A DNA stretch of 64,000 bases. It comes from Planctomycetota bacterium. Its GTDB lineage: Bacteria > Planctomycetota > B15-G4 > SIAN01. Within the stretch, counting starts at the first letter, position 1; every line of letters begins with the position of its first letter. The DNA lies in the NCBI GenBank assembly GCA_028289345.1, contig JANQQL010000047.1, positions 57,454-121,453 on the forward strand, given 5' to 3'. A program made the position numbers and the translations under genes. The notes beneath the pieces are model-generated. The model did not search any database. It was not told where the DNA came from and was given only the letters and a program-made list of their open reading frames with translations. Below, one piece after another: positions 1 to 30,735 of this stretch.

Positions 1-368
1 GCACCTCAACTCGCCTCGAAACCCGGCCCGACTGGACTCGCCGGTCACTGGGAAAGGAGTTCCTCGCACGAAAGCAATGCCGTGGTCGCCTGAAATGAAG
101 GCCATGCGCCCACAACGGCGCATGGATGGACGGCCCCAAACCCAAAGGAGCGGGCGAAGCGATCGGCTTTCGCGCGCCTGTCGACTCGGCGAGGGGCCGG
201 CGCGGCCTCCCCTCCGACGAATGCGGAATCGGGACAGGCTGGGTCCCCCTATCATCGTTCCCGGAATCCACGGGACCCCCTGCTTCGTCATCTCCGGTGG
301 TGGTCCCACCTCACTGGCGCCAGTCGCCAAATCCCACGGCAATCCGCCGTGGATGGAAAGGAGAAGCA

Positions 369-830
369 ATGAGCGTGCAACCGATTCCCGAAGGCTTCCA
401 CTCAGTGACCCCTCACCTGATCATCCAGAATGCCGCCGAAGCCATCGAGTTCTACAAGAAGGCATTCGGCGCGGAGGAGATGACCCGTATGCCGACCCCC
501 GACGGCAAGATCATGCACGCGGAGATCAAGATCGGCGATTCGCATGTGATGATCGCCGAGCGGATGGCCGAGTTCGGCATGAAGGGTCCCGAGGACTTCG
601 GCGGCAGCCCGGTCTGCCTGCACATCTACTGCGACAACGTGGACACCATGTTCGAGACCGCAGTCAAAGCCGGTGGCCAGGTGGTCATGCCCCCGCAAGA
701 CATGTTCTGGGGCGACCGTTACGGCAAGCTCAAGGACCCGTTCGGCCACGAGTGGTCGATCGCCACCCACACCGCCGATCCGAGCCCGGAAGAGATGGCC
801 AAGGCCGCGGCCGAGGCGTTCGGCGGCTAA
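369..830 (+). CDS. VOC family protein (glyoxalase/bleomycin-resistance/PhnB-like fold)
   Basis: ATG at 369 is preceded by an aaggag RBS. The 153-aa product has the typical VOC/PhnB-like sequence (HLIIQNAAEAIEFYKKAFGA...GDRYGKLKDPFGHEW). The ORF table's longer 126..830 version carries an implausible N-terminal extension. Confidence 0.85.
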   Translation: MSVQPIPEGFHSVTPHLIIQNAAEAIEFYKKAFGAEEMTRMPTPDGKIMHAEIKIGDSHVMIAERMAEFGMKGPEDFGGSPVCLHIYCDNVDTMFETAVKAGGQVVMPPQDMFWGDRYGKLKDPFGHEWSIATHTADPSPEEMAKAAAEAFGG

Positions 831-1110
831 CACTCCGAAAAGGCGACCAGCACCCGACTCCCGAGTGCTGGCTCGCTGCCCGTGGAGAGCCGCTCCCCCG
901 AACTCGCGGGCGGCGTTGAAGATTGACGCCCCCCCCTTCCTTGCCTCGACCGCGGCGGAAATCCTGCCTCTCGGGCCGGCAGAGCGTAACACCGAGAGCC
1001 CCAGGGGTTGCTCCCGGGTCACGAGTCTCCATGATCGGGCTGCCGGCGGACCCAGCGGTCCCGCCGGCAGCTCGTTTTCGTTCCCTCCCCAGCAAACAGG
1101 AACTTCCTCC

Positions 1111-3093
1111 ATGATCCCGCGACGTGCCGCTCTGTTGTTCTTCGCGCTCGTTTCCGTCCTCCGATCGGGCGTCGCCCAGGCCTCGGAAGACGCGTGGTGG
1201 CTCGCCACCGTGCAAGGAGCGCCGGTCGGCTACACACGCACCATCACCGACCAGCTTGAGGAGGACGGCGAAGTCCGCTTCCTCACCATCGAGACCATGA
1301 AGATGAAGCTGGGCCGCTTGGGCGCCGAGATGGAAATCGTCGGCACCACGCGCTCGTGGGAAAACGAAGCCGGGGAGATGCTGCGCATCGAGGGCAGCAT
1401 GGAAATGGCCCAGAACCCGACCAGCTACAAGGGCGTGGTGCGTGGCAACGTGCTGCATCTCGAGAGCACGTTGATGGGCAACACCCAGAAGAAGCAGCTT
1501 CCGTGGAAGAAGGGCATCGTTGGCTCTCATGCCATCGATCGCGCCTGGGTGGAAATGTCCCGCGCTCCGGTCGGGACCAAGAAGAAGCTGATGAGCTTCG
1601 AGCCGACCATGGGAATGATCTTCAACATGGAGATCGAAGCCGGGCCCACCGAGATCATCGAGCACCAGGGTCAGAAGGTAGAAGCACGGGTGGTGTTCGG
1701 CACGACGGACCTGATGCCCGGGATGAAATCTCGGGTCTGGGTGACCCCCGACGGCGAATCGATCCGCGAAACCGCCCCGCTCATGGGATCGGTGGAAATC
1801 GTCTCGACCCGCACCACTCGCGAGAAGGCCTTGGCCGGCTTCGAAGCGAGCGGAGAGGTCCCCGACATTTTTGCTCAGTCCGTCGTGACCTGCCGGGTTC
1901 CAATTCCCAACCCTCGACGAGTGGACGAGGTGCTCTACCGCGTCACCATGGAGAACGCCAATCACGAGCTGCCGCCCTTCGACCACGATCGCCGTCAGGT
2001 CGAAGAGTCCCGCAGCGACAGCGAGGTGATGCTGCGGATCACCCGTCAGGAACCGGCCGCCCTGTTCCCCTTCCCGCTCGCCGACTTGCCCGAATCCGTC
2101 GGGGCGTCATTGAAGCCGTCCCTGCTGGTTCAAAGTGATGACGGAGACATCGCTCGCACGGCCCGCGAAATTGCCGGCTCGGAGACCGATGCGTGGAAGG
2201 TGGCCCAAGACATGGAGCGCTGGGTCTACGAACACATCCAGAAGAAGAGCATGGATGTCGGTTTCGCCTCGGCACGAGAAGTTTTCGAGACCAAGCAGGG
2301 GGACTGCACCGAGCACGCGGTGCTGTTGGCGGCACTGTGCCGTTCGGTCGGGATCCCGGCTCGAGTCGCCATGGGGTTCCTGTATGTCCAAGGCATCTTC
2401 GGTGGCCATGCGTGGACCGAGGTATACATGGATGATTGGTACGCCTTGGACGCCACCAACGCGGTCGGCGGGGTGGACGCGGCTCACATCACCATGGGAA
2501 CCAGCAACTTCGATCAAGACGAAGGGCTGGCGGAATTCCTTCCCATGATGGCCGTGTTCGGCAACGTCGACATCGACGTGGTCGAGCTCCGCTACGGGGA
2601 ACAGCGCATCCAGACGGGCGAAAACCTGACCAACAACATGATCCAGGGAGACACCTACGAGAACCGCTTGCTCGGCCTCAAGGTGACCAAACCGGAAGGT
2701 TGGAAGTTCGAGATCCCCGAGAAAGAAGGAATCAGCAAGGACACCCTGACCTTGGCGTCTCCGAAAGGTGACTTCCTGCACATTCACTCCCAGTCCGTTC
2801 CCTATGACTTTTCCCTCGAGGACCTGCGTCAACGTGCCCTGTCTTCTTGGAAGGGCGAAGGAAAGAACGTGACTCAAACGCCCCTGTCCATCGACGGGCG
2901 GGCGACTCAAATGCGCTCGGCCACCATGCCGAGCATGCAGCGGGTCGGCGCGGACGTGCTGTTGGGCGACACCCTCTTCGTGTTCGACATGACGACGTTG
3001 CGCGAAGACGCCGCGCAGCTGTTCGAGGAGATTCTGGACACCGTGGACTTCGACGTGGGCGTCATGCAGCTCGAAGCCGCCCAGTCGGAGTAA
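1111..3093 (+). CDS. secreted transglutaminase-like superfamily protein
   Basis: ATG at 1111 gives a signal peptide (MIPRRAALLFFALVSVLRSGVAQA). The transglutaminase-like Cys-His-Asp core is present (KQGDCTEHAVLLAALCRSVGIPARVAMGF...GHAWTEVYMDDWYALDATN). The upstream part of the 673..3093 ORF is an Arg/Pro-rich artefact. Confidence 0.8.
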   Translation: MIPRRAALLFFALVSVLRSGVAQASEDAWWLATVQGAPVGYTRTITDQLEEDGEVRFLTIETMKMKLGRLGAEMEIVGTTRSWENEAGEMLRIEGSMEMAQNPTSYKGVVRGNVLHLESTLMGNTQKKQLPWKKGIVGSHAIDRAWVEMSRAPVGTKKKLMSFEPTMGMIFNMEIEAGPTEIIEHQGQKVEARVVFGTTDLMPGMKSRVWVTPDGESIRETAPLMGSVEIVSTRTTREKALAGFEASGEVPDIFAQSVVTCRVPIPNPRRVDEVLYRVTMENANHELPPFDHDRRQVEESRSDSEVMLRITRQEPAALFPFPLADLPESVGASLKPSLLVQSDDGDIARTAREIAGSETDAWKVAQDMERWVYEHIQKKSMDVGFASAREVFETKQGDCTEHAVLLAALCRSVGIPARVAMGFLYVQGIFGGHAWTEVYMDDWYALDATNAVGGVDAAHITMGTSNFDQDEGLAEFLPMMAVFGNVDIDVVELRYGEQRIQTGENLTNNMIQGDTYENRLLGLKVTKPEGWKFEIPEKEGISKDTLTLASPKGDFLHIHSQSVPYDFSLEDLRQRALSSWKGEGKNVTQTPLSIDGRATQMRSATMPSMQRVGADVLLGDTLFVFDMTTLREDAAQLFEEILDTVDFDVGVMQLEAAQSE

Positions 3094-3480
3094 GGACCGG
3101 CGCGCTCGACGTGCACCACGCCTGGGTTCGGCGTCCGACCGAGAGGAGCGGGCGGGCAAGCTCGGGATCGGGCGGGCCGAGCATCGAGGGGCGGACGCCA
3201 AGATTCGACTCACTCGGCGGTCGCAAGGATTGCTCACCCGAGGCGATTCGTGAGTCCGGCGGCCCTCGGCTGGACTCATGAGGATTAGCCCGGACGAATC
3301 GTGAAGGTTCGCAGGCCTGAGGAAAAGGCCTGCGAGCACGAGACCCCGGGAACTTTTCCCCGGCCTCCCCGTACGTGAGGAGATGGCCCAGGCCTCCCTG
3401 ACCCCCGGGTCGTGTGGGAGGAGCCGCAGTTTTCCCGAGGGGGTGACCACCTCGAACTGGACGCGAAGGAGAGTGGATTC

Positions 3481-4446
3481 ATGAGCCTGACGCTGTTGTC
3501 CCTGTTGCTCGCCGTCGCGGATCCCGTGCCGGCAGCCGAGATGCCGAACGATGTCCTCACCGTGTCCGCATCGATGGACTCGGGGGAGTGGACCCCGGGA
3601 TCCGACCATGTGCTGAATCTCGAAGTCACCATGAAGGACGGCTGGTCCGCGTCGACTTCGGGAATTCCCCAGCCGCTGCTGCAGATCCAGAAGCCCGCCT
3701 CGGTGACCCTGGAAGGCAAGGTCCTGACGAAATTCGAAGACCTGGCCCGCAACGAGTTCCTCCAGGCTCCCTATGAGCGCCTGATCGAAGGGACCCGCGC
3801 CGAGATCGGCTTTACAGTGAAAGGCGATCCAAGGGACGGAGAAACCCTGGCATTCACCGTCCTCGCCTACGTCTCCGACGATCCGGACTCTCGCGGCTGG
3901 TTCGTGCGCAAGCGCATGGAAGTCGAGCTGAAGCCAGACGCCGTCGCCAAAGAGGTGTCGGCGGAAGACTCCACCTGGGGAGACTCGGGTGTGCTGCAGA
4001 TCGGGGACGACGCCGAGTCTTTCGAACTGCCTCGCGCCGACGAGTCCTACCTGGTCATGGACGACTACCTGTACGAGAAGAACATCGTCGTCACCACCTA
4101 TCGCGCCTACTGGTGACCGTTCTGCATCGAACAGCTCGGTGAGCTGTCAGACTTCCGGCAACAATTCGAGGACCGCGACACCGTCGTCATCGCCATTGCT
4201 CAAGAGGACACCGACCTCGTGACCCACGGCAAGATCCTGGAGAAGTTCCCCGAGGACCTGCCTTTCCAGCTGGTCGCGGATGTCGACCAGGAGCAAACCA
4301 AGTCCTACGATCGGACCACGACGTACCTGATCGACAAGGAAGGGGTGGTGCGAGAAATCTTCCCCGCCATGATCCACATGCGTCCGACCTGGCACTCGGT
4401 GCTGAATCGTCTGGACGAAATCCTCGGCGCAGAGGCCGCGGAGTAA
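3481..4446 (+). CDS. predicted selenoprotein: periplasmic TlpA/Prx-like thiol:disulfide oxidoreductase with in-frame TGA (Sec) at 4114-4116 within a W-U-P-F-C redox motif
   Basis: RBS aaggagag, then ATG 3481 and a signal peptide MSLTLLSLLLAVA. The ORF appears to stop at TGA 4114-4116, but the same frame continues with no stop and no start codon for 34 codons. It encodes the remainder of a peroxiredoxin/TlpA-like thioredoxin fold (PFCIEQLGELSDFRQQFEDRDTVVIAIA...TYLIDKEGVVREIF) and ends at TAA 4444-4446. The TGA sits exactly where the first Cys of the WCxxC motif is expected (YRAYW-TGA-PFC). Confidence 0.6.
4131..4147 (+). other. candidate bacterial SECIS-like hairpin (acagctc-GGU-gagctgt) 15 nt downstream of the in-frame TGA
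   Basis: A perfect 7-bp stem with a GGU apical loop starts 15 nt 3' of UGA 4114-4116. Spacing and G/U-containing loop are compatible with a SelB-binding element. Confidence 0.35.
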
Positions 4447-4481
4447 CCCGCTCCCCGTTGCGTCGTCCCTCCTGAACCTTC

Positions 4482-4522
4482 GGGGCCCGATTCACCGTCG
4501 CGTGAGTCGGGCCCCTTCTCTT
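4482..4522 (+). terminator. putative intrinsic terminator / stable hairpin downstream of the selenoprotein gene
   Basis: A perfect 9-bp GC-rich stem (ggggcccga ... tcgggcccc) is followed by ttctctt, about 35 nt after the TAA stop at 4446. Confidence 0.4.
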
Positions 4523-4839
4523 GGGCGAACTCTGCGGGAAACGACGCCTGCCGCGAGCCGACGCCCCGCAGACCTGACCGGGACACCCATCTGACGGGAA
4601 ACCTTGTCCCGGACAAACCGCCCCGTCGCTCGATCCCGAATCTGCGGGGCGGGGCTACCATGGCATGCGCAGGGCCGAAGCCGCCTTGGCAGCCGCTATA
4701 TTCGCGCGGATTCCGCGATCCAGCCCCCTGGCCCGCCCCTTGCGGAGGCTTGGAGGATCTGGAACTCCCTGCGAACCCCACCCTCGGCGTCGCGCTCCCC
4801 TGTCATCCGAAAATCCAGCACAAGGACCCGGCCCTCTCC

Positions 4840-7644
4840 ATGGCGAAGTCTGAAGCTCCCAAGCGGCGTCGCTACGTTCCCGCCGTCGGCAAACGCCTGA
4901 ACGTTCTTTTGGCCGTGGTCTTCGGCTTGTTCGCACTGCTGTCCGTGAACGGGCTGTTCCTCGCGAGCGTGCGCGTGCTGGGGTACTTCACCGGACGCTC
5001 CTACGAGAACCTCTTCTACCTCTACAACTTCCTGGTGCACCTGGTGCTGGGTTTCGTTCTGATCGCCCCGCTGGTGATTTTCACCGCGATCCACATGAAG
5101 AACACTCGGCAGCGGCGCAACCGACGCGCGTTGAAAGCCGGCTATGGCCTGGCGTTCATCGCTTTGCTGCTGGTGTTGAGCGGGGTCCTGCTGACTCGCA
5201 TCGAAGGCATCCTGGAGGTCAAGAACCAGACGGTTCGGAGCGCCGCGTACTGGGCCCACGTCATCACTCCGTTGTTGGCCGTCTGGATGTTCATCCTGCA
5301 CCGCCTGGCGGGCCGCAAGATCCGCTGGAACATCGGATTGCGCTGGGCCGTGGTCGGTGTCGTGTTCGCGGGAATCAGCCTGCTATTCCTCACCCACGAC
5401 CCGCGCGCTTGGGACGTGGAGGGCAATCCAGACGGCGCTCAGTACTTCTTCCCGTCGTTGGCCAGGACGGTGAGCGGCGATTTCATCCCGGCGCACGTCC
5501 TCGACAACGACGAATACTGCATGCGCTGCCACCAGGACGTTCATGAGTCCTGGGAAATGAGCGTCCATCGCTTCGCCTCGTTCAACAACCCGGTGTACCT
5601 GGCGTCCATTCGCGAAACACGCCAGGCCATGATGGAGCGCGATGGGAACATTCAAGGCTCACGATTCTGCGCCGGCTGCCACGATCCGGTTCCGTTCTTC
5701 TCCGGCGCCTTCAACGACCCCAACTACGACGACGTCAACCACCCGACGGCCCACTCGGGAATCACCTGCACCGCCTGTCACGCCATCACCCACGTGAACA
5801 CTCCGCGAGGCAACGCCGACTACACCATCGAAGAGCCCATCCACTACCCGTTCACGTTCAGCGACAACCCGCTGCTGAGCTGGGTGAATGAGCAGCTGGT
5901 GAAAGCCAAGCCAGGGTTCCACAAGAAGACGTTCCTGAAACCGCTTCACCAAGAAGCCGAGTTCTGCGGGTCCTGCCACAAAGTGCACTTGCCGAAAGAG
6001 GTCAACGACTACAAGTGGCTCCGCGGCCAGAACCACTACGACAACTATCACTTGAGCGGCGTTTCCGGCCACGGGGTGCAGAGCTTCTACTATCCCCCCA
6101 AAGCGGAACACAATTGCAACAACTGCCACATGCCGTTGATGCCTTCCGACGATTTCGGCTCCCAGGACTTCGACGGGTCTGGCGTCGTCCAGGCCCACGA
6201 CCACATGTTCCCTTCGGCCAATGCGGCCATTCCTCATTTGGAGGCCGAACTCAACCGCCTTACCAAAGAACAAGCGAACATTGCCGAGCAGAAGCACCGA
6301 AAGTTCACTGATGGCGTGATGCGTCTAGACATCTTCGGCATCAAAGAAGAGGGGCGCATCGATGGGGCACTGACGGCTCCGCTGCGGCCCGAGGTCCCGA
6401 CCTTGCAGCCCGGGGGCCGGTATCTCCTCGAAGTCGTCATCCGCACCAAGAAGATGGGGCACATCTTCACCCAGGGCACGGTGGACTCGAACGAAGTTTG
6501 GGTAGAGATGAGCGCCGAGTCGGACCAACGACTCTTGGGACGTTCCGGCGGACTGCACCCGGACACGCGGGAGCTGGACCCCTGGTCACACATGGTGAAT
6601 GCGTTCGTGCTCGACCGGGAAGGCAACCGGATCTCGCGACGCAACGCCCAGGACATCTTCATTCCGCTGTACAACCATCAGATTCCGCCGGGAGCCGCGG
6701 ACGTGGTGCACTACCTTCTGGAAGTGCCAGAGAACCAGACCGGCTCCATCACGGTGAACGCGCGCCTTCGCTACCGAAAGTTTGACAACGAGCTGATGCG
6801 CTTCGTCACCGAAGACGAAGGCTATGTGAACAACCTTCCGATTCTGGAGCTGGCCGAGGATCGGGTCGTGTTCCCGGTGGCCGGAGGAGACGTTTCCCAG
6901 AACCCCGCTTCTGAGATTCCGGAATGGGAACGCTGGAACGACTACGGGATCGGCCTGCTGCGCAAGGGACAGCTCGGTGAGCTCCGCCAGGCAGAACATG
7001 CCTTCCAACAGGTCGAGCGTCTGGGTCGGCCGGAAGGGCCGTTGCACCAGGCCCGGGTGTACATCAAAGAAGGTCGCGTTGCCGACGAAGCGCCCGCCGC
7101 CTTGCGTCGAGCTCGGGACTTCGAACCTCCCGCCAATGAGTGGTCGGTGCTTTGGTTCTCCGGCTTGGTCAACAAGCAGAACGGCAAGCTGGAAGATGCA
7201 ATTCGAAACTTCGAGCAGATCCTGGAAGGAGGCTTCGAGCAAGCTCAGGGTCGAGAATTCGACTTCCGTCAGGACTACAATCTGCTGAACGAACTGGCCG
7301 GCACCGTGTTCGAGCGCGCCAAGCAAATGCGCGGGGAGAAACGCAAGCCCCAACGCGAAGCGCTCATGAACAAAGCCCTCGGCCTGTTTCACCAGGTCCT
7401 TGACCTGGATCCCGAAAACGTGACGGCTCACTACGGTCTGAACTTGATCTACCGAGACCTGGGAGACGATGCCAAGGCCGCAGAACACAGCGCGCTGCAC
7501 GGCACTTACAAGGTGGATGACAACGCGCGGGACCTCGCCATCGCCAACGCTCGGATCAAGTACCCAGCCGCCAATCACGCGGCGGAAGCGGTGGTGATCT
7601 ACGACTTGCAGCGCGATGGCGCCTACGGAATGCCCCAACAATGA
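4840..7644 (+). CDS. membrane-anchored pentaheme c-type cytochrome with C-terminal TPR repeats
   Basis: ATG at 4840 (MAKSEAPKRRRY). About five N-terminal TM helices. Five CxxCH motifs (CMRCH, CAGCH, CTACH, CGSCH, CNNCH). The C-terminal half is TPR-like. The stop overlaps the next gene's start (ATGA). Confidence 0.8.
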   Translation: MAKSEAPKRRRYVPAVGKRLNVLLAVVFGLFALLSVNGLFLASVRVLGYFTGRSYENLFYLYNFLVHLVLGFVLIAPLVIFTAIHMKNTRQRRNRRALKAGYGLAFIALLLVLSGVLLTRIEGILEVKNQTVRSAAYWAHVITPLLAVWMFILHRLAGRKIRWNIGLRWAVVGVVFAGISLLFLTHDPRAWDVEGNPDGAQYFFPSLARTVSGDFIPAHVLDNDEYCMRCHQDVHESWEMSVHRFASFNNPVYLASIRETRQAMMERDGNIQGSRFCAGCHDPVPFFSGAFNDPNYDDVNHPTAHSGITCTACHAITHVNTPRGNADYTIEEPIHYPFTFSDNPLLSWVNEQLVKAKPGFHKKTFLKPLHQEAEFCGSCHKVHLPKEVNDYKWLRGQNHYDNYHLSGVSGHGVQSFYYPPKAEHNCNNCHMPLMPSDDFGSQDFDGSGVVQAHDHMFPSANAAIPHLEAELNRLTKEQANIAEQKHRKFTDGVMRLDIFGIKEEGRIDGALTAPLRPEVPTLQPGGRYLLEVVIRTKKMGHIFTQGTVDSNEVWVEMSAESDQRLLGRSGGLHPDTRELDPWSHMVNAFVLDREGNRISRRNAQDIFIPLYNHQIPPGAADVVHYLLEVPENQTGSITVNARLRYRKFDNELMRFVTEDEGYVNNLPILELAEDRVVFPVAGGDVSQNPASEIPEWERWNDYGIGLLRKGQLGELRQAEHAFQQVERLGRPEGPLHQARVYIKEGRVADEAPAALRRARDFEPPANEWSVLWFSGLVNKQNGKLEDAIRNFEQILEGGFEQAQGREFDFRQDYNLLNELAGTVFERAKQMRGEKRKPQREALMNKALGLFHQVLDLDPENVTAHYGLNLIYRDLGDDAKAAEHSALHGTYKVDDNARDLAIANARIKYPAANHAAEAVVIYDLQRDGAYGMPQQ

Positions 7645-9500
7645 ACGACCCGAAGAGCACGGAGCCCCACGACCACGAGTCCGAAGAGTTCGTCCCCGAA
7701 GACGACCGCATTGTCGGCCAGGCGTTTCGCTGGTCCCTCGCCGTCATTCTTTTCCTCGCCGGGGTGATCTGCGGGTTCCTGTACTTCTCGAAAGAGGAGG
7801 TCCAAGAAGCCGAGGTCCAGGAGAAGGATTTGAGTGCGATCCCGGACTTGGCGCCCGAACTGGAACAAGCGCCCACGGTGGTGTTCACCGACGTGACCGA
7901 GCAGGCGGGAATCGACTTTGTGCATCACAGCGGCGCCCGCGGCGAGAAGCTCCTCCCGGAAACCATGGGAAGTGGCTGCGCCTTCTTCGACTATGACGCG
8001 GACGGAGACCAGGACCTTCTCTTGACCAACGGTACCGCCTGGCCCCACGACCCCGCCCCCGAGACGCCGCCGACCATGGCCCTGTATCGCAACGACGGAT
8101 CCGGTCACTTCGAAGACGTCACCGAAGAATCCGGCCTGGCAGTGTCCTTCTACGGCATGGGACCCGCCGCGGCAGACTGGGACGCCGACGGAGACCTGGA
8201 CTTGTTCGTCGCCGCGGTCGGACGAAACCGCATGTTCCGCAACGAAGGGGGCACCTTTGTGGAGGTGACCGATCAAGCGGGAGTGGCCGGACTCGACAGC
8301 GAGTGGACCTCGTGCGCCGGCTTCTTCGATGCCGATGGCGACGGCGATTTGGATCTGCTGGTCGGAAACTACGTCGAGTGGTCCCGAGACATCGACACTC
8401 AGTTGGCCTTCACCTTGAACGGCGAAGACCGTGCTTACGGCCCACCGACCAACTACAAGGGGAGCTTTCCCGCTCTGTATCGCAACGACGGCGATGGGAC
8501 CTTCACCGACATTTCGGAGGAGTCCGGGATTCGCATCGCAAACTCGGCGACCGGCGTGCCGGTGGCCAAGACTTTGGGCTTCGCCTTCACCGACATCGAT
8601 CAGGACGGCTTGCAAGACGTTCTGGTCGCCAACGACACGGTCAGCAACTTTCTGTTTCACAACCTCGGCGGTGGCAAGTTCGAGGAAATTGGAGACGTCG
8701 CTGGAGTCGCGTACGATTCCACTGGGCATGCCACGGGCGCCATGGGCATCGACTGCGCCTACTACCGAAACGACGGTTCCCTGGGAATCGGCATCGGCAA
8801 CTTCGCCAACGAAATGAGTTCGCTGTACGTGTCCTACCGCGATCGCCTTCAGTTTTCCGACGAGGCCATTGGCGAGGGCGTCGGCTCCCCTTCGCGACTG
8901 CGCCTTTCCTTCGGTCTGTTCTTCTTCGACTACGATCTGGATGGGCGCATGGATTTGTTCCAGGCCAACGGACATCTGGAAGAAACCATCCACGAAATCC
9001 AAGAAAGCCAGCACTACCACCAGCCGGTTCAGCTGTTCTGGAACCGCGGCCCCGATTCGGAGAGCTGTTTCGTCGAGATTCCGAGCGACGAAGCGGGCGA
9101 TCTGGCGAAAAAGGTCGCGGGGCGTGCCGCGGCCTACGCGGACGTGGATGGAGATGGCGATCTGGACGTGATTGTCACTCAGCCCGGCGATCGCCCGATG
9201 CTGCTCCGCAACGATCAGGACCTGGGACACCACTGGATTCGATTGCAACTAGCCGGTTCCGGAAGCAATCGAGACGCCCTTGGCGCGCGTGTTCGCATCA
9301 CCCAGAACGGAACGACCTACGAACGAAGGGTCAGCCCCACCCGCAGTTACCTGAGTCAGGTGGAACTTCCGGTCACCATCGGCCTCGGCACCGCGACCTC
9401 GGTCGAGAAGCTCGAAGTGATCTGGCCCGATGGCTCGACTCAAGCCGTGACGAACCCGACGATCGACGGGCTCACGGTGGTCCGCCAGTCGGGAGCCTGA
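7641..9500 (+). CDS. CRTAC1-family protein (FG-GAP/VCBS repeats plus ASPIC/UnbV domain), membrane-anchored
   Basis: Translationally coupled to the cytochrome gene. Has an N-terminal TM helix and repeated 'FDYDADGDQDLL' / 'FDADGDGDLDLLVGNY' FG-GAP motifs. The C-terminal UnbV_ASPIC-like region reads ...RVRITQNGTTYERRVSPTRSYLSQ. Confidence 0.85.
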   Translation: MNDPKSTEPHDHESEEFVPEDDRIVGQAFRWSLAVILFLAGVICGFLYFSKEEVQEAEVQEKDLSAIPDLAPELEQAPTVVFTDVTEQAGIDFVHHSGARGEKLLPETMGSGCAFFDYDADGDQDLLLTNGTAWPHDPAPETPPTMALYRNDGSGHFEDVTEESGLAVSFYGMGPAAADWDADGDLDLFVAAVGRNRMFRNEGGTFVEVTDQAGVAGLDSEWTSCAGFFDADGDGDLDLLVGNYVEWSRDIDTQLAFTLNGEDRAYGPPTNYKGSFPALYRNDGDGTFTDISEESGIRIANSATGVPVAKTLGFAFTDIDQDGLQDVLVANDTVSNFLFHNLGGGKFEEIGDVAGVAYDSTGHATGAMGIDCAYYRNDGSLGIGIGNFANEMSSLYVSYRDRLQFSDEAIGEGVGSPSRLRLSFGLFFFDYDLDGRMDLFQANGHLEETIHEIQESQHYHQPVQLFWNRGPDSESCFVEIPSDEAGDLAKKVAGRAAAYADVDGDGDLDVIVTQPGDRPMLLRNDQDLGHHWIRLQLAGSGSNRDALGARVRITQNGTTYERRVSPTRSYLSQVELPVTIGLGTATSVEKLEVIWPDGSTQAVTNPTIDGLTVVRQSGA

Positions 9501-21942: not shown

Positions 21943-24741
21943 TCACGATCCGACGGCCCGCTCGATTCGCTCGACCAGCTGCTGCAGGCGTGGGTCCCCC
22001 CCGAGCGCTTCCTGCAAGGGGCCACCGCGCTGCCACTGAAGGCTGTCGAGGGTCCAGCCAGGATCCTCGTCCGCCATCTCCTCGAGGATCATCAAGGCCT
22101 GGTCCAGGTCTCCGGCCACCGCGTGAGCCATCGACTCACAGACTTGCAGTCGGCCACGAAGCCTTTGTTTCAGGAACTCGGGAACGGCAAGCTCCTCCAG
22201 CATGCCGAGCCCGCGGTCCAGAAACTCCTCGGTGGGCGCCAGATCTCCGAGAGCGGCGGCTGACTCACAAGCAATCAGGCAATCGCTGAACTCTTCGAAA
22301 CTGCCCGGTTCCGCGGAATCGAGCGAGCGCTCCGACAAATCCCTCAGGGATTCCCAGTCTCCGAGGACTCGAGTCACCGCACGATCCAACTCGGTCACTG
22401 TTCGCGGGGCTTCGCCGAGCGCTTCTTGACGCAGTCGTTCTCCGACTTTCTCGTAGGTGTTGCCCGGCGAGGAATAGCTGTCCGCAAAGCTGGTCACTTG
22501 CCCCGACTCGCTTCGAGTGAAGAACACCCATCGTCCTTGTTCGCGATTGAGGAAGAGATCCTGGTCGACCGCTTCGAAGGAACGGTCCCAGATCTCAATC
22601 TGACCCGGCTCCACCGAAGTGACCTCGGTGAATCTCGAAGCCTCCCAACCCGCCCCCGGGGGACAGCCGTGACAGAAGAGGTTGCCGACATAGGTCCCGG
22701 TGTAGGCGGCAGTGTCGACCTCCAGACGCGGCCGGTCCACATCGATCGATGTCCTGCCCTCGGGAAACCAGTGGTTCATCAACGCACGAGTGACCGCCCA
22801 CGCAAGCCGCGGTCGAGGTCCCGTTTCTCCATCTCGGTTCATGAGCACCACGGCGCCCTTGCCTTGACCGGGCAGAAAGAAGAAGTCGCCCGAGTATCCC
22901 TGCATGGTTCCTCCATGCTGAAGGACTCGCTGACCGTTGTGCATTTCTTCCCAGAAGCCGAAAGAGAAGCCGGGGATTTCTGGATGAGCACGGAACTGTG
23001 AGGTGCGAAGCTGATTCGCCATCTCGCTCGAAAACAGTCGAGCGGTTCCACAGGACCCATCGCCGCTCAAAGCAACCAAAAGACGGGCCATGTCCGACGC
23101 CGTGGAGTCGATCGACGAGGCCGGCAAAGAAGCGTAGTACTCATATCCTTGTCGAACGTGGCGTCCCGCAGTGAAGCCGTAGCCGGTGGCGAGCTCGTCC
23201 CGCCGATCGTCGGGCACTTCCACGAATGAGCGGGACATGCCAAGAGGCTCGAAGACCAGCCGAGTCATCGCCACTCCGTAGTCCACATCCAGGCGCGCTT
23301 CCAGCAAGTACCCGAGCAGAGAAATCCCGTAGGTGTCGTAGCAACTTTCCCGTCCGGGAGGACGAACACGGCGCAGGTCCCGTTCCAGAAAATCTCCGAG
23401 CGAGACCCGCTGGGCCGGGTCATAGAACAACCGGTTGGTCCCCACCTGGTCGAATCCTGCCGTGTGGGTCATCAAGTGATCGATGGTGACCGGCGAGTCG
23501 AATCTTGTGTCGACATGGAACTGCTCGAGGTAGGTGTTCACATCGGCTTCCCGAGACAGGAGGCCTTGATCCACCGCCGCCAACACACCGATCGCGCTGA
23601 CCGCCTTCGAGATCGACCCAATGCGAAACAAGGTCTCTTCCGCATCCACCGGAGACTCGGTCTCCAGGTCCGCCACGCCATATCCTTGCAGGTACGCAAT
23701 TCGGCCTTCGTCCACCACGGCCACGGCAGACCCAGGAAGGGAATCATCCAGCATCTGTTGAGGAATGATCGACTCGAGTAGCTCTCGATACTCTTCGCCG
23801 TCCGGCGTCACCGGCTTGACGGTCTCCACTGCGGCTTCCTCGCTCGCCGCGCGCTTCATGAAGCCCAGCCGAGCGGGCGCCGCAAGCAACACGGGCGCTG
23901 GAGAACTGTCCGCGGAACTGGTGGCGACCGTCGGGCTTTTCGGTGGAGTGCGCGGTGGCAAGGCTCTGCGCACCACGAGGGGGGAAGCCTCCGAGGCAGA
24001 GCCGACGGCAGCGGACGGATTCGAAGCGAGGACGGAAGGAGCTTCGTCGAGGGACGGCAAGACCGCAGAGTCCGCCTCCTTCCTTCCGACCATGATGAAG
24101 AACCCGAGAGCGGCCACCGCGATCGCTCCTGCCAGAGCTTGGAAGGACCAATCTCGGCCCGCCACTCGTTCGGAAGACTTCGCAAGGGGAAGCGTTCCGG
24201 GGACACAGAACACTGCCAATCCCCGGCGAATCGCAGATGGCTCATGCTTGCGTTGAAGCTCCTCGCGCAGCATCTGCAGTCCACGACGCAACCGGGTTTT
24301 GACCGTTTGCAACGGGACCTCCAGACGCTGGGCCATCTGAGGAGGAGTCAGCCCTTCGTAGTAACGCAGGTAAACGCTCGTTCGATAGGGCTCCCGCAAT
24401 TCGCGCAGGGACTTCACGAGGTCTTGAACCAGCTCCATGCGAGCTTGGATCTCGGCCGGGTCGGTCGTCGACGAATCTCGAAGTCGCTGATCGTGGTAGG
24501 CCCGCTCCCGAAGGAGCCGCCGCTCGTCTCCCAGCTGCATGCTGCGAATCGCATTGCGAGCGACTTGCTTCAGCCAGGCCCCAAGGTTTCCTTGGGCCGG
24601 GGGGCTCCCCAACGCAGTGACCCAGGTCTGCTGCACCACGTCGTCGATCGGTGCTTCTCGAGAAATCAGGTCTCGGGCGATGCGACGCAGGCGATCCCGA
24701 TGGCGCAGCAGGTCCTCGGCAGTCAAGGCTTGTTCACTCAT
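21943..24741 (-). CDS. ECF-type sigma-70 domain fused to a TM helix, a periplasmic beta-lactamase/serine-hydrolase-like domain and a C-terminal helical domain
   Basis: ATG 24739-24741 (MSEQALTAEDLL). Sigma region 2 is DDVVQQTWVTAL and region 4 is YLRYYEGLTPPQMAQRLEVPLQTVKTRLRRGL. A single TM helix (AIAVAALGFFIMVG) is followed by a Pro/Ser linker. SxxK motif (GSISKAVSAIG) and HGG motif are present. Confidence 0.75.
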   Translation of the reverse strand: MSEQALTAEDLLRHRDRLRRIARDLISREAPIDDVVQQTWVTALGSPPAQGNLGAWLKQVARNAIRSMQLGDERRLLRERAYHDQRLRDSSTTDPAEIQARMELVQDLVKSLRELREPYRTSVYLRYYEGLTPPQMAQRLEVPLQTVKTRLRRGLQMLREELQRKHEPSAIRRGLAVFCVPGTLPLAKSSERVAGRDWSFQALAGAIAVAALGFFIMVGRKEADSAVLPSLDEAPSVLASNPSAAVGSASEASPLVVRRALPPRTPPKSPTVATSSADSSPAPVLLAAPARLGFMKRAASEEAAVETVKPVTPDGEEYRELLESIIPQQMLDDSLPGSAVAVVDEGRIAYLQGYGVADLETESPVDAEETLFRIGSISKAVSAIGVLAAVDQGLLSREADVNTYLEQFHVDTRFDSPVTIDHLMTHTAGFDQVGTNRLFYDPAQRVSLGDFLERDLRRVRPPGRESCYDTYGISLLGYLLEARLDVDYGVAMTRLVFEPLGMSRSFVEVPDDRRDELATGYGFTAGRHVRQGYEYYASLPASSIDSTASDMARLLVALSGDGSCGTARLFSSEMANQLRTSQFRAHPEIPGFSFGFWEEMHNGQRVLQHGGTMQGYSGDFFFLPGQGKGAVVLMNRDGETGPRPRLAWAVTRALMNHWFPEGRTSIDVDRPRLEVDTAAYTGTYVGNLFCHGCPPGAGWEASRFTEVTSVEPGQIEIWDRSFEAVDQDLFLNREQGRWVFFTRSESGQVTSFADSYSSPGNTYEKVGERLRQEALGEAPRTVTELDRAVTRVLGDWESLRDLSERSLDSAEPGSFEEFSDCLIACESAAALGDLAPTEEFLDRGLGMLEELAVPEFLKQRLRGRLQVCESMAHAVAGDLDQALMILEEMADEDPGWTLDSLQWQRGGPLQEALGGDPRLQQLVERIERAVGS

Positions 24742-24902
24742 CCCGCTCTCACTTGGTTCCGGCAAAGGGTCGGGTGGAAAACACCCAACGGAAGCAGCGA
24801 TGGGCACCGACCACCCGTCTCCCCCCAGCAGGCCGGGTCCCGGTCGCTCCGCCTCATGAACCTCGCCGGGCGGGATTGGAGTTCAGGAATTCGAAGACTT
24901 TC

Positions 24903-26644: not shown

Positions 26645-27796
26645 ATGTCAGGGCTTTGCTTGGGCATCTTCCTTTCGAGCGTGCTTGTCGCAGTGACACA
26701 AGCCCCCCCTTCCGAGGGCGGAGTCCTTCTCGCCGTCCATGAAGAAGCTTCTCTCGAGCTTCAAGCATTCTGGGATCCCTGCAAAGAGTCCAAATACGGC
26801 CTCTTCGAGCGCACCAAAGCAATCGCCTCGATTCAACCGGTTCACGAGACGAACTTGTACTTGGCTTCTTCGTTCCAAGCATTTCTTCCCGAGCACCGGG
26901 TCGAGGTCGGCCAAGTTTGGAAAGTGAAAGAGGAGGCCGTGTTGCCGTTCTTGCGACAACTGCATCCGGGTGCGACTGCCCATCTCCATCACGGCAGCCC
27001 GGGCAGCACCGGCGCTCGAGCCTGCTTGCGAGCGATCAACGCCACCAAAGCCGAGGTTCTGATTCGCGCCCATGCGGAGTTTCGGATCGAAGACGAGATC
27101 TTCTTCACCCCGGCGCAGTTCGAAGGACGTCTGGTCCTCGATCAGGAAACGGGCATGGTCGATTCGTTTCGACTCTTCTTGCCCAGTCGAAACACCAACG
27201 TCGACATCAACGTGGGTTCCGTGGATTCTTCGGGGCCCTTCCCTGAGTCTCGTTCCTACGAGGCAGACATTGGATGGGTGCCGCGGCTGGAAGTGACCAG
27301 CGGTCCGAGTCTTCCCCCACACTGGGTCGACTCCATCTCGCTCGAGAAAGCGAGGAGCCGTCTCCGGGCCCCGTTCTATGCATTCGCCAAGATCGACTGG
27401 ATGCCGTTCGAAAGCGCGGTCCAAGAATCCATCGACCTCGGCCTACCGCTCCACTTGATCATCCTGTTCGGCTGCCTCGACGACGAATCCTGCTGAGGCA
27501 GCGGCAAGACACTGAGGGCGGGTCCGCTCTCGAACCCCAGGATCATCAAGACACTGAATGAAGACTTCATCAACACATGGATCCTCGCCAAGGACTTGGA
27601 GCACCTCGCGGAACACTCTCCCGACGAAGCCATTCGTGAACGGGCCGCCCATTGCGGCAAGCGCTACAAGTACCCGGTCGACAGTCAGATTCTGGCTCCG
27701 AACGGCGATCTCCTGAGCCAGGTAGGAGCGAACGAGATCATGGGACTGGATCTGGGGAATCGCTATTGGCGGTTCCTGGAGAGTGCCTACGAGTGA
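26645..27796 (+). CDS. predicted selenoprotein: secreted protein whose C-terminal thioredoxin-like fold spans an in-frame TGA (Sec) at 27494-27496 (motif C-U-G-S)
   Basis: ATG 26645 with a signal peptide (MSGLCLGIFLSSVLVAVTQA). The ORF nominally ends at TGA 27494, but the same frame continues for 99 codons with no start and no stop. It encodes Trx-fold-like sequence (…IDW…LHLIILFGCLDDESC-TGA-GSGKTLRAG…NEDFINTWILAKD…YKYPVDSQILAPNGDLL…). It ends at a TGA that overlaps the ATG of the next gene (TGATG at 27794-27798). Confidence 0.5.
27514..27531 (+). other. candidate SECIS-like hairpin (gagggcg-GGUC-cgctctc, including one G.U pair) 17 nt downstream of the in-frame TGA
   Basis: A 7-8 bp stem with a G/U-containing apical loop lies about 20-27 nt 3' of UGA 27494-27496. 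Confidence 0.3.
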
Positions 27797-30735
27797 TGGT
27801 CGATTCCAACAACCCGTGCGACGAGCTGTTTCGACATGCGGGATTCGTGAAGCACCTGGCGCGAGACCTGCGCAGCGACCCAAACTCTTCGGACGACCTG
27901 GTGCAGGACACGTGGGTGGTTGCCCTGCAGTCCCCGCCGAGTTCCACCACCGGCGTCAAAGGATGGCTCAAGCAGGTGTGCCGTCGCTTGGCGATTCGGG
28001 AAGGGCGAACCCAGGAACGACGGTTGCGCCGGGAGCAAGCCACGGCTTCTCACGAACTCTCCCGAACAACGGTCGAAGAATGCGCCTGGCGCGAAACTCT
28101 CCGTCAAGTGACGGATTGTGTGCTGGCCCTCTCGGAGCCCAACCGTCAGGTCATTCTGTTGCACTACTACGAAGGCCTTTCGCCCGAAGCGATTGCCAAT
28201 CGACTGGAGGTATCTCGTGCCACGATCTACTCGCGGTTGAGTCGCGGCCTCGAACAACTTCGTCACGCGCTCGATCAAAAGAACCGGGGAAACCGGAGCG
28301 CGTGGGTGCAAGCGCTCGCTCCCCTCACTCTGGATCTCCCCACTCGGAGAAGATCCACGGACAGCGATTCGACGACGCTGTCCATTGGGAGAGTGTGGGT
28401 CGGGGTCGCGCTCTCGGGACTACTTGTCGCAACCGGAGTTTGGTGGTGGCGAGACGGCAAACTCGGAGACACGGGTGACGGGCCACCATCGCCCTCGTCG
28501 TTCATCAGTGAGACCCGAACCAACACCCAAAGCGTCGAGAAAAGCGACCAAAGGCTCGAGGCCCCCGTTCGAGAACTCGCTTCCTCCAAAGCGGCGACCG
28601 GGGACTCGCGACAAGTCGAATCCCCTCCTGTTCCTCGAGAAGACGAGGCTTCCGCGCGCACGGTGGTGCGAATGGTGTGGCAAGACGACGGCACTCCCCT
28701 TGGTGATCGCTGGGTCCAGATCGTTCCCCGGAAACCCAGCGCCGCGGAGTTTCCGGCTTTGAAGACCGACGACCAGGGAGAGCTTCCTCTTCCTGACGGG
28801 GGAGCCGACATTCTTGCTTTGGTCGATCCAGTCGCTCACCAAACTCTGAAGCTGCCCGAGCACCCCGCCGCCTTCGACACCATCCGTTGGGAAATCCCGG
28901 CGGGCTTGGACGTGTCAGGAACCGTCGCCGACATCCGGGGACATCCCGTCGGCAAGGCAAGCATTTGGATTGGTCATCCGGAACGGACGTTGCCGCCGGT
29001 TTTGGTCGATGTTTCGCACGCCCAGGGAGAGTTTCATTTGCGAGGAGTGGCTCCGGAGTCTCGCTTGTGCGCGATGGCGTCGGGCTATCAGGCGTCTCGC
29101 TTTCAAAGTGTCGAGGGAATTCCAGGATCTTCCGTCCGCGCCACGGTGATCCTCGCCCCGGGTTGCGGAGTGCTGACCGGCCAGGTGCTCGATGAATCGG
29201 GACGCCCGGTCCCCGGGGCCAGGATTCGGATGAAAGGGCGACATGAAGCCGACCTTTATCGGTTCGATGGAGTCGCACTCCACGATCTACCTCCCTGGGA
29301 AACACGAGCCGACTCAAAGGGGCGCTATCGCTTTGACTCCCTGGTCCCGGGCCCAGTGCAGCTCGTGGTGACCGCCCCCGGCTATGCCCCGACGGCCATG
29401 CAGCGGCAGCTTCCGCGTCAACAGTCGGAACAGGATCTCGTTTTGACCAAAGGAGTCTGCATCTCCGGACAAGTCCAAGACCTGTCCGGTGCCCCCGTGG
29501 CGGACGCGGTGATCGAGATGCGAGACACCAAGTCTCCCTGGCAGCAAATGGTTCGCGTCGATGCCGCGGGTACGTACGAGCTTCTGCACTTGCCGAACAG
29601 CGCGCAGCTTGTTGTTCGCAGCCCCTCGGCCGGAGTGGCACGGCGACTGATTGCGGAAGGATCCGGGCGGGATCGAACTTGGAATCCGGTTCTCCATCCA
29701 GGCAGAACAGTGCATGGCCGGCTGCAAGACTCTTCGGGTCAACCTCTGGGTGGTCGGACGATTCACGCCGTGGGCAACGTGCCGAGGGGGGACCAGCGGT
29801 CGCTGTGGAGCAGTCAGGCTCGGACCGATGCAACCGGTGAGTTTCGCCTTCTCGGGTGTCCCGATGAGCCGCTCCAGCTGGAGATCCTACGTCACGTTCA
29901 AATCGGCGACATCGAACTGGCCGTTCGAATCGAACCAAACGATCCCATGCCATTGACCTTGGTCCTGGAGCCGACCCAAACACCGAGTGCGTGGATTCGC
30001 GGCTTTCTGGTCGATCCCGCGGGGCAACCGATCGTTGGCAGAGTCGAGGGGTTCTCCCACGGCCTCACCGCGGGAAGCACACTCTTCCAGGAAGCCACCA
30101 CGGATTCTCGCGGTCACTTCCTGCTCGGTCCCCTCGCTCCCGGGCTCTGGCAACTCCGCGCCCGCCGCCACCATGGACCTCTCGTCTCCCTGTCCCGGAT
30201 CAACGTCGGATCCGGAGAAACGGTCGATCTGGGCAAGTCGCTCGTTGAGTTCTCGGGATGGCTGGAGATCCGAACAGAACGGCCCAGGGAGCCGGTTTTC
30301 GAACGGTTTCAAGTCATCGGCAATGGCAACCTGCAAAACCATGCCATCTCACAGGACCGAATCGCCCTTTCTCCCGGCGAGTACACGGTCACCTTGTGGG
30401 GACGCAACACCGCGCTCGTCACCCATGAAGTCACGATCGCACCGCAACAGCTGACCACCCTCGACGTCCGGGGAACTGCGGGCACGCTGTGTCGCTTTCG
30501 GTTTCAGATTGCTGAAGGGAGGATCTCCCACACAATCGGATTCTCTCTCTTCTCCGGGGACCGACTACTTGGTCACTGGTGGCACTCGGTCCAGGAATCC
30601 AAGACCCGCGAGCAACGCTTGTCACCGGGCTCCTACGACCTCGAAATCCATGGAACCGGCCGCCCCACCTTTCGCCGGAGGGTGGAAGTGCGTCCGGGAC
30701 AGCCAGAGCTCACCGAACAGCTCGTCATCGAGTGA
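27796..30735 (+). CDS. ECF-type sigma-70 domain fused to a TM helix and about five periplasmic carboxypeptidase-regulatory-like (CarboxypepD_reg/prealbumin-fold) repeats
   Basis: ATG 27796 (MVDSNNPCDELFRH) aligns with the start of its paralog 21943..24741. Sigma region 4 is LLHYYEGLSPEAIANRLEVSRATIYSRLSRGL. TM helix VWVGVALSGLLVATGVWWW. Repeated GxVxDxxGxPVxGAxI motifs follow. Confidence 0.75.
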   Translation: MVDSNNPCDELFRHAGFVKHLARDLRSDPNSSDDLVQDTWVVALQSPPSSTTGVKGWLKQVCRRLAIREGRTQERRLRREQATASHELSRTTVEECAWRETLRQVTDCVLALSEPNRQVILLHYYEGLSPEAIANRLEVSRATIYSRLSRGLEQLRHALDQKNRGNRSAWVQALAPLTLDLPTRRRSTDSDSTTLSIGRVWVGVALSGLLVATGVWWWRDGKLGDTGDGPPSPSSFISETRTNTQSVEKSDQRLEAPVRELASSKAATGDSRQVESPPVPREDEASARTVVRMVWQDDGTPLGDRWVQIVPRKPSAAEFPALKTDDQGELPLPDGGADILALVDPVAHQTLKLPEHPAAFDTIRWEIPAGLDVSGTVADIRGHPVGKASIWIGHPERTLPPVLVDVSHAQGEFHLRGVAPESRLCAMASGYQASRFQSVEGIPGSSVRATVILAPGCGVLTGQVLDESGRPVPGARIRMKGRHEADLYRFDGVALHDLPPWETRADSKGRYRFDSLVPGPVQLVVTAPGYAPTAMQRQLPRQQSEQDLVLTKGVCISGQVQDLSGAPVADAVIEMRDTKSPWQQMVRVDAAGTYELLHLPNSAQLVVRSPSAGVARRLIAEGSGRDRTWNPVLHPGRTVHGRLQDSSGQPLGGRTIHAVGNVPRGDQRSLWSSQARTDATGEFRLLGCPDEPLQLEILRHVQIGDIELAVRIEPNDPMPLTLVLEPTQTPSAWIRGFLVDPAGQPIVGRVEGFSHGLTAGSTLFQEATTDSRGHFLLGPLAPGLWQLRARRHHGPLVSLSRINVGSGETVDLGKSLVEFSGWLEIRTERPREPVFERFQVIGNGNLQNHAISQDRIALSPGEYTVTLWGRNTALVTHEVTIAPQQLTTLDVRGTAGTLCRFRFQIAEGRISHTIGFSLFSGDRLLGHWWHSVQESKTREQRLSPGSYDLEIHGTGRPTFRRRVEVRPGQPELTEQLVIE

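Follow-up and report, generated by a model that had tools for sequence, protein, structure and literature searches.

The 64-kb window analysed here, a stretch of 64,000 nucleotides from a Planctomycetota bacterium (contig JANQQL010000047.1), carries on its forward strand, at positions 3481–4446, a reading frame that is interrupted once by an in-frame TGA (4114–4116). From comparison of this region with its relatives, it is very likely that the whole frame is one gene, that its UGA is read as selenocysteine (Sec, U), that a hairpin just downstream serves as a bacterial selenocysteine insertion sequence (SECIS), and that the product is a 321-residue peroxiredoxin-like (Prx-like) redox protein with a UxxC motif. 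A first-pass annotation of this DNA had proposed such a selenoprotein, with a UxxC motif in a redoxin of the thioredoxin (Trx) fold and a SECIS behind the TGA. This proposal is supported by an invariant TGA, by coding selection, and by a conserved hairpin that agrees with published criteria for bacterial SECIS (bSECIS) elements.

Read from ATG 3481, the candidate selenoprotein gene is a complete coding sequence (3481–4446, forward strand) of 321 residues including Sec212, in a single frame with one internal TGA. The TGA is codon 212 and is followed by 109 open codons and a TAA at 4444–4446. The frame is thus open beyond the TGA, as the first-pass annotation had stated, and its further claim that no start codon follows for 34 codons is also correct, the next in-frame ATG, GTG or TTG being GTG 4219. 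The list of open reading frames (ORFs) splits the gene into one ORF that ends at 4116 and another of 75 codons that starts from GTG 4219. Standard annotation had been expected to give a 211-aa fragment and an orphan piece. This is what a gene caller produced for this DNA in a second, independent assembly (locus L072), where a 211-aa protein and a 75-aa orphan were called; L072 and the window agree in all of 10,830 bases, TGA 4114 included.

Orthologous DNA was collected from 64 loci in 64 species-level genomes, and the window was added to give a set of 65 sequences. The search patterns excluded the stop codon, and sense codons at this position could have surfaced. Nearly all of these genomes are labelled Planctomycetota or Phycisphaerae, and a few only "bacterium". 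The tblastn coverage in the orthologs extends over residues 1–321, with a median pairwise identity of 44% and divergence down to 31%. In all 65 sequences the codon after a conserved Trp is TGA, followed by P-[FYSN]-C and about 100–140 open codons. The terminal stops of the same genes are mixed (TGA in 25, TAG in 24 and TAA in 15), and set beside this mixture the invariant internal TGA is therefore not an ordinary stop. Column entropy at the three codon positions amounts to 0.82, 0.66 and 1.38 bits past the hairpin, compared with 0.91, 0.67 and 1.40 bits upstream, indicating that the region past the TGA evolves as coding sequence in this frame. The best-conserved residues of the whole protein lie just past the TGA; for example, the Cys three residues after it (Cys+3) is present in 67 of 67 family members.

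The composition of the window and the protein databases give a similar picture. When the 64 kb were scanned for TGA codons flanked on both sides by a coding signature, based on G+C content at third and second codon positions (GC3/GC2), six sites were returned, and TGA 4114 has the clearest signature among them (GC3 0.81/0.82). TGA is the terminal stop of 16 of the 23 Pfam-supported genes in the window, and the genetic code is accordingly taken as standard. A search of 5.8 billion proteins yielded 27 homologs of 200–227 residues, all of them ending at the invariant Trp (...TTYRA[FYH]W), and one homolog of 314 residues that reads on with S-PFC. An exhaustive HMMER search with an N-terminal profile gave 374 clusters (50% identity, E ≤ 0.001), including 134 at E ≤ 1e-30, and nearly all of the best 150 matches end at the last position of the profile. 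Altogether, more than 100 database homologs end at the position of the TGA.

The candidate bSECIS core is a hairpin at 4131–4147 on the forward strand (4131–4137 ACAGCTC, loop GGT, 4141–4147 GAGCTGT), which starts 15 nt after the A of the TGA. Its stem is perfect (7 bp, ACAGCUC/GAGCUGU, with a GGU loop), just as the first-pass annotation had described it. With the 65 sequences aligned without gaps (stem columns 27–33/37–43), standard pairs occupy 96.7% of the stem cells, compared to 4–41% when the partner strand is slid by one to three columns. The hairpin is kept in all orthologous loci, in a 6-bp version in L033. Compensatory changes are seen at four of the seven pairs, with a covariation score unmatched by any shuffle, and RNAalifold independently recovers six of the seven. 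The clearest pair, columns 30/40, is A-U in 38 sequences, G-C in 24, G-U in three and A-C in none. It links codon position 3 of a Gln to codon position 1 of a Leu within the conserved peptide Q-L-x-[QE]-L that encodes the stem. Third-position entropy drops to 0.70 bits within the hairpin codons, against 1.38 bits just downstream, indicating that these synonymous sites are constrained by the RNA.

Published criteria for bSECIS elements comprise a loop of 3–9 nt, a stem of 4–16 bp, a distance of 16–37 nt from UGA to loop, a minimum free energy (MFE) of ≤ −7.5 kcal/mol, and a G in the first two loop positions, usually as G[G/U] (PMC13188914, Fig. 2). The window hairpin, with a GGU loop, 7 bp, 21 nt from UGA to loop and −8.4 kcal/mol, lies within all of these limits, so its suggested compatibility with a bacterial SECIS holds. 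The limits on loop, stem and distance also hold for the conserved hairpin of the orthologs. Taken whole, the surrounding 81-nt region has no unusual stability (folding z = +1.09), and only the local hairpin stands out. Stability of the larger region was dropped as evidence because this z-score is not significant.

Genes for Sec synthesis are found beside the ortholog in related genomes. In four loci (L010, L042, L056 and L059), ARAGORN predicts a tRNA-Sec 1.5–3 kb upstream of the ortholog, and Rfam RF01852 confirms all four with 66–70 bits against a gathering score of 47. A SelA gene (PF03841, E = 7e-126) stands directly before the tRNA-Sec in L010, and the C-terminal part of SelA occupies the same place in L059. 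The window itself contains no tRNA gene, no tRNA-Sec and no Rfam match, and Pfam scans of its 29 large ORFs found no SelA, SelB or SelD. By exact-protein look-up the region was extended by ~6 kb upstream, through a VOC-family neighbour, and by ~2 kb downstream, through an M28 peptidase; the same look-ups for P0001 and for a transglutaminase neighbour returned no record. We infer rather than observe that this genome has the Sec trait, as sel genes occur neither in the window nor in the ~8 kb added around it.

The loci with tRNA-Sec show further features of their own. The order selA, tRNA-Sec, an ORF of ~320–410 aa and the ortholog recurs in Phycisphaerales (L010, 42–1487; L059, 40–945). The intervening ORF has weak tetratricopeptide repeat (TPR) matches in L042 and L056 and no Pfam match in L010 and L059. 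L042 carries its tRNA-Sec at 1384–1480 without an adjacent selA, and a chorismate synthase gene is found there instead. In L056, the tRNA-Sec (8–103) is followed by a deiodinase-like gene (PF00837; ~230–1252, forward strand) with a signal-like N-terminus and an in-frame TGA at 497–499 (GSYT-U-PPF), then by a TPR-like ORF and then by the ortholog. This locus looks like a small selenoprotein cluster.

The predicted protein consists of a leader and two domains. The leader (3481–3537; MSLTLLSLLLAVADPVPAAE), judged by eye, is a probable signal peptide or membrane anchor. The N-terminal ~13 residues are hydrophobic in all homologs, a property that is conserved while the sequence is not, and the segment is helical or of low confidence in structure models. 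An immunoglobulin-like (Ig-like) beta-sandwich domain follows (3553–3960; approximately residues 25–160); Pfam and NCBIfam hold no entry for this N-terminal domain or for the family. The Prx-like Trx-fold domain (4000–4443; approximately residues 174–321) is split by the Sec codon. The AhpC-TSA profile (PF00578) matches across the TGA with E = 1.7e-17 and 63.9 bits (cut-off 26), covering residues 174–292 and positions 1–123 of the 124 in the profile, and Redoxin (PF08534) also matches across it (E = 9e-12), up to residue 294. The 34 start-less codons had been said to encode a conserved redoxin core, and this is confirmed, since PF00578 spans the TGA and these codons form the best-conserved stretch of the gene.

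The redox motif U-P-F-C (Sec212...Cys215) lies at 4114–4125, with the readthrough sequence ...TTYRAYW-U-PFC-IEQL. Among the 67 family members, Pro+1 is kept in 65 and the preceding Trp in 64, and the Y-R upstream is invariant. Arg278 (4312–4314), present in 60 of 67, aligns with the active-site Arg of peroxiredoxins, which precedes a ..[FY]hID beta-strand, in the alignment with Bcp1 (..ARITFVIDKKG). A structure model of the full-length, Ser-bearing homolog P0002 (pLDDT 91.8, pTM 0.89) shows two packed domains, with the Sec-equivalent residue directly before helix 209–227, which places the UxxC at the start of the first Trx-fold helix.

The best sequence and structure matches are the BCP/PrxQ and 1-Cys peroxiredoxins (Bcp1 3drn, Bcp4 3hjp, LsfA and AhpE). 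Bcp1 is the best sequence match in the PDB (5e-9), and Foldseek with the C-terminal domain of the P0002 model ranks these four best (TM of ~0.8 on the target), with ResA slightly behind. Cys215 falls on the peroxidatic Cys of these proteins and Arg278 on their catalytic Arg, and the Ser-bearing relatives show S/T-x-x-C. However, Sec stands where these peroxiredoxins have Thr, an invariant Arg replaces their Pro four residues earlier, and the motif follows a Trp, as it does in TlpA-type proteins. The peroxiredoxin signature P-x-x-x-T/S-x-x-C is not found in the studied family, which reads R-A-[FHY]-W-U-P-[FY]-C. The TlpA/ResA/CcmG proteins share the N-terminal hydrophobic leader, and their W-C-P-x-C falls on W-U-P-F-C residue for residue (W-C-P-Y-C in 3hdc, W-C-P-H-C in ResA; P0030/P0031). 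In contrast to TlpA/ResA, the studied protein has R-T-T in place of the cis-Pro loop, with no Pro, and it scores 40 bits with the NCBIfam ResA model, whose cut-off is 170. In the neighbourhoods of the 65 loci, linked cytochrome-maturation genes are absent.

The first-pass annotation had equated the TGA with the first Cys of a WCxxC motif. This stands for the distant TlpA/ResA proteins but not for BCP/PrxQ, in which the position is Thr and the following Cys is peroxidatic. From the sequence, fold and motif comparisons, the protein has a Prx-like scaffold that carries a TlpA-like W-[CU]-P-x-C motif. The Prx-like selenoproteins with UxxC have been described as the same combination of motif and scaffold (PMC1088965; PMC2398784; PMC13188914). 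This class of thiol:disulfide oxidoreductases, named "Prx-like protein" or "Prx-like 1" (PMC1088965; PMC2398784) and rated "predicted with high confidence" (PMC13188914), is defined by PF00578 and UxxC, and the studied protein has both the AhpC-TSA domain and the UxxC motif. It differs from the class in its additional N-terminal Ig-like domain and hydrophobic leader, and the family as sampled is confined to Planctomycetota/Phycisphaerae. In addition, its non-Sec members carry Ser or Glu, whereas Prx-like 1 has thousands of Cys homologs (PMC2398784). The comparison with the class (representative WP_010940744.1) was made by description.

The hairpin also resembles the SECIS of Escherichia coli fdhF, a short stem-loop in the coding region just past the UGA, whose small apical loop contains G and U. 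Its 17-nt core has the size of the minimal fdhF element, which lies ~11 nt past the UGA. The studied gene differs in its spacing of 14 nt, in the lack of an evident bulged U, and in a stem that is encoded by Q-L-x-[QE]-L.

Several observations weigh against the selenoprotein interpretation. No selA, selB, selC or selD was found in the 64-kb window or in the ~6 kb upstream and ~2 kb downstream of it. The close non-Sec members of the family carry Ser (three) or Glu (one) and never Cys, which is atypical for selenoproteins. No neighbouring gene cluster occurs in more than seven of the 65 loci, the gene itself and overlapping out-of-frame ORFs aside, and gene context thus points neither to a substrate nor to a role for the N-terminal domain. 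Rfam gave no SECIS match, either at gathering thresholds over the window or at permissive E-values over 4080–4220, where the matches returned were to miRNA and snoRNA families and are due to chance only. Finally, the bare 17-nt hairpin commonest among the orthologs has −7.4 kcal/mol, just short of the −7.5 limit, which is reached when the flanks are included.

The missing sel genes in and around the window would also fit readthrough of the UGA by a near-cognate tRNA (Trp, Cys or Arg), with the hairpin as a generic readthrough stimulator, and the inserted residue is not told by sequence alone. We regard this as improbable, however, because the hairpin has the G[G/U] loop and spacing that define bSECIS elements, selA or tRNA-Sec stands beside the ortholog in four genomes, and the codon falls at a redox-active position of the Trx fold; moreover, with Cys or Trp as an adequate residue some of the 65 orthologs should have a sense codon, and none does. 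Less probable still is that the TGA is a true stop and that the product is a 211-residue Ig-like protein, the redoxin piece being untranslated or made from GTG 4219. This matches the output of the gene caller, and several hundred database entries are recorded in this form. But such a stop would cut the Trx fold right past beta-1, inside the Pfam domain, and would exclude the 34 best-conserved codons of the gene with their invariant Cys. Like the terminal stops, it would also be expected to vary among TAA, TAG and TGA. Substitutions in the downstream frame are of the coding type, and four homologs with a sense codon at this position are continuous proteins of 312–335 residues.

The window comes from a metagenome-type assembly and one homolog is a single base off (TCA), as might be seen if the TGA were a sequencing or assembly error or if the gene were a pseudogene. 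This explanation is hardly credible, since the TGA is shared by 64 other species and recurs in a separate assembly of the sample, and the downstream frame is intact and under selection. The chance of a reassigned code in which TGA is sense everywhere (e.g., Trp or Gly) is close to nil; it is refuted by the 16 of 23 window genes that end with TGA after complete Pfam domains, and just six TGA sites in 64 kb have a two-sided coding signature.

The four sense-codon homologs are L065 (TCA, Ser), L066 and L068 (both AGC, Ser) and L070 (GAG, Glu). The hairpin is lost in all four, with just two to five of the seven positions still pairable. L065 is nested in the Sec clade and is 67% identical to L004; on these relationships it is a recent TGA-to-TCA derivative whose hairpin is already eroding. 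The first-pass annotation had explained the TGA as a Cys-to-Sec substitution and had suggested aligning its column with Cys-containing homologs. The distant TlpA/ResA relatives do have Cys in this column, but the full-length members of the family itself have Ser or Glu. A Cys-to-Sec substitution is therefore not the evident history of this family and the term does not fit it.

In the selenoprotein reading, the ribosome would decode UGA 4114–4116 as Sec, and the hairpin at 4131–4147, acting as the SECIS, would recruit SelB carrying Sec-tRNA(Sec). The product of 321 residues would probably be exported, with the N-terminal Ig-like beta-sandwich packed on the Prx-like Trx fold and the active site W-U212-P-F-C215 at the start of the first helix. 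Sec212 may attack the oxidised substrate and form a selenylsulfide with the invariant Cys215, which a thiol partner would then re-reduce, and the Ig-like domain may provide binding of the substrate or of a partner. As substrate, a peroxide is slightly favoured over a protein disulfide, because the protein has a Prx-type Arg and an invariant Cys that falls on the peroxidatic residue, and because the Ser-bearing relatives show S-x-x-C, while the W-U-P-x-C motif counts against peroxide and toward disulfide reduction.

A different arrangement, compatible with the lack of Cys homologs in the family, is conceivable but rather unlikely, namely that Sec occupies the Prx Thr/Ser position of S/T-x-x-C instead of replacing a catalytic Cys. 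The family would then be a near-obligate selenoprotein family that arose from Ser and reverted in one lineage, by single-base changes, with Cys215 as the peroxidatic residue and Sec212 as a built-in resolving partner forming the selenylsulfide. If true, bacterial Prx-like selenoproteins would gain an undescribed path of Sec evolution together with an undescribed catalytic arrangement.

A Shine–Dalgarno-like AAGGAG, as read from the sequence, is located at 3466–3471 on the forward strand, 9 nt 5' of ATG 3481. For this reason ATG 3481 was preferred over the upstream GTG 3412; the homologs likewise begin at the hydrophobic N-terminus. Behind the gene, a terminator-like hairpin (4482–4525, forward strand; 14-bp stem with 10 GC and a T-rich tail) lies 36 nt past the TAA. 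It is the sole site of this kind in 3000–4800, and none lies within 4116–4446.

A second candidate selenoprotein gene was found in the window at 26645–27796 on the forward strand. Its TGA (27494–27496), picked out by the same composition scan as TGA 4114, lies in an SCUG motif and is followed by 99 further open codons. The protein has a signal-like N-terminus and reads ...LFGCLDDESC-U-GSGKTLRAGPLSNP... across the TGA. Nearly all of its 155 homologs end in ...DDESC, and three are full-length with Cys (SC-C-GSGK). One of these three bears the JGI name "selenoprotein N", and the SCUG motif matches that of animal SELENON. A hairpin (27514–27531, GAGGGCG-GGUC-CGCUCUC) has its loop starting 24 nt past the TGA. 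Pfam and NCBIfam have no family for the protein, and no description of a bacterial selenoprotein N turned up in a quick search of the literature. This conserved TGA-interrupted gene with its Cys-bearing homologs indirectly supports the presence of Sec machinery in the genome of the window, as do the selA and tRNA-Sec genes beside the orthologs.

Other genes near the locus were also noted. Directly downstream, 4660–7644 (forward strand) encodes a protein of 994 residues with several CxxCH heme-binding motifs and C-terminal TPRs, for which a faint Cytochrome_C554 match was obtained in L072. The next gene, 7641–9500 (forward strand), encodes an FG-GAP/ASPIC-UnbV protein, and the Glu-bearing homolog in L070 also adjoins an FG-GAP protein; no consistent linkage is seen across the loci. 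To the left of the window, a heme-biosynthesis cluster occupies L072 1–5749 on the strand opposite to the studied gene, with ferrochelatase, glutamyl-tRNA reductase, porphobilinogen deaminase, uroporphyrinogen-III synthase and ALA dehydratase. Two long ORFs of the window (21943–24807, reverse strand; 27652–30735, forward strand) have N-terminal sigma-70 regions 2 and 4 of the extracytoplasmic function (ECF) type and large C-terminal parts, one with a beta-lactamase-like domain and the other with CarboxypepD_reg repeats, and may represent sigma factors to which sensory or anti-sigma-like extensions are fused. Among the orthologs, L055 (JANQQE010000011.1), with TGA and hairpin intact, is located on an 892-kb contig in a bin labelled Alphaproteobacteria, which could reflect a mislabelled bin or horizontal transfer.

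Selenoproteins of the UxxC Prx-like type are among the commonest bacterial selenoprotein classes, and the gene therefore represents a known kind rather than a new mechanism. It leaves the knowledge of Sec decoding unchanged. The Planctomycetota family itself is undescribed and has two unusual traits, the Ig-like domain and the Ser, instead of Cys, in its non-Sec relatives. Its public records are almost only "hypothetical proteins" of ~205 residues that are cut at the UGA, and corrected gene models would restore a redox enzyme to many Planctomycetota and Phycisphaerae genomes. Sec is kept in every sampled ortholog down to 31% identity with Ser and Glu as the only alternatives, and the SECIS lies inside a conserved Q-L-x-Q-L peptide and decays after loss of the UGA. 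For these reasons, the family would offer a clean natural system for studying why Sec is retained and how a SECIS and a coding sequence coexist.

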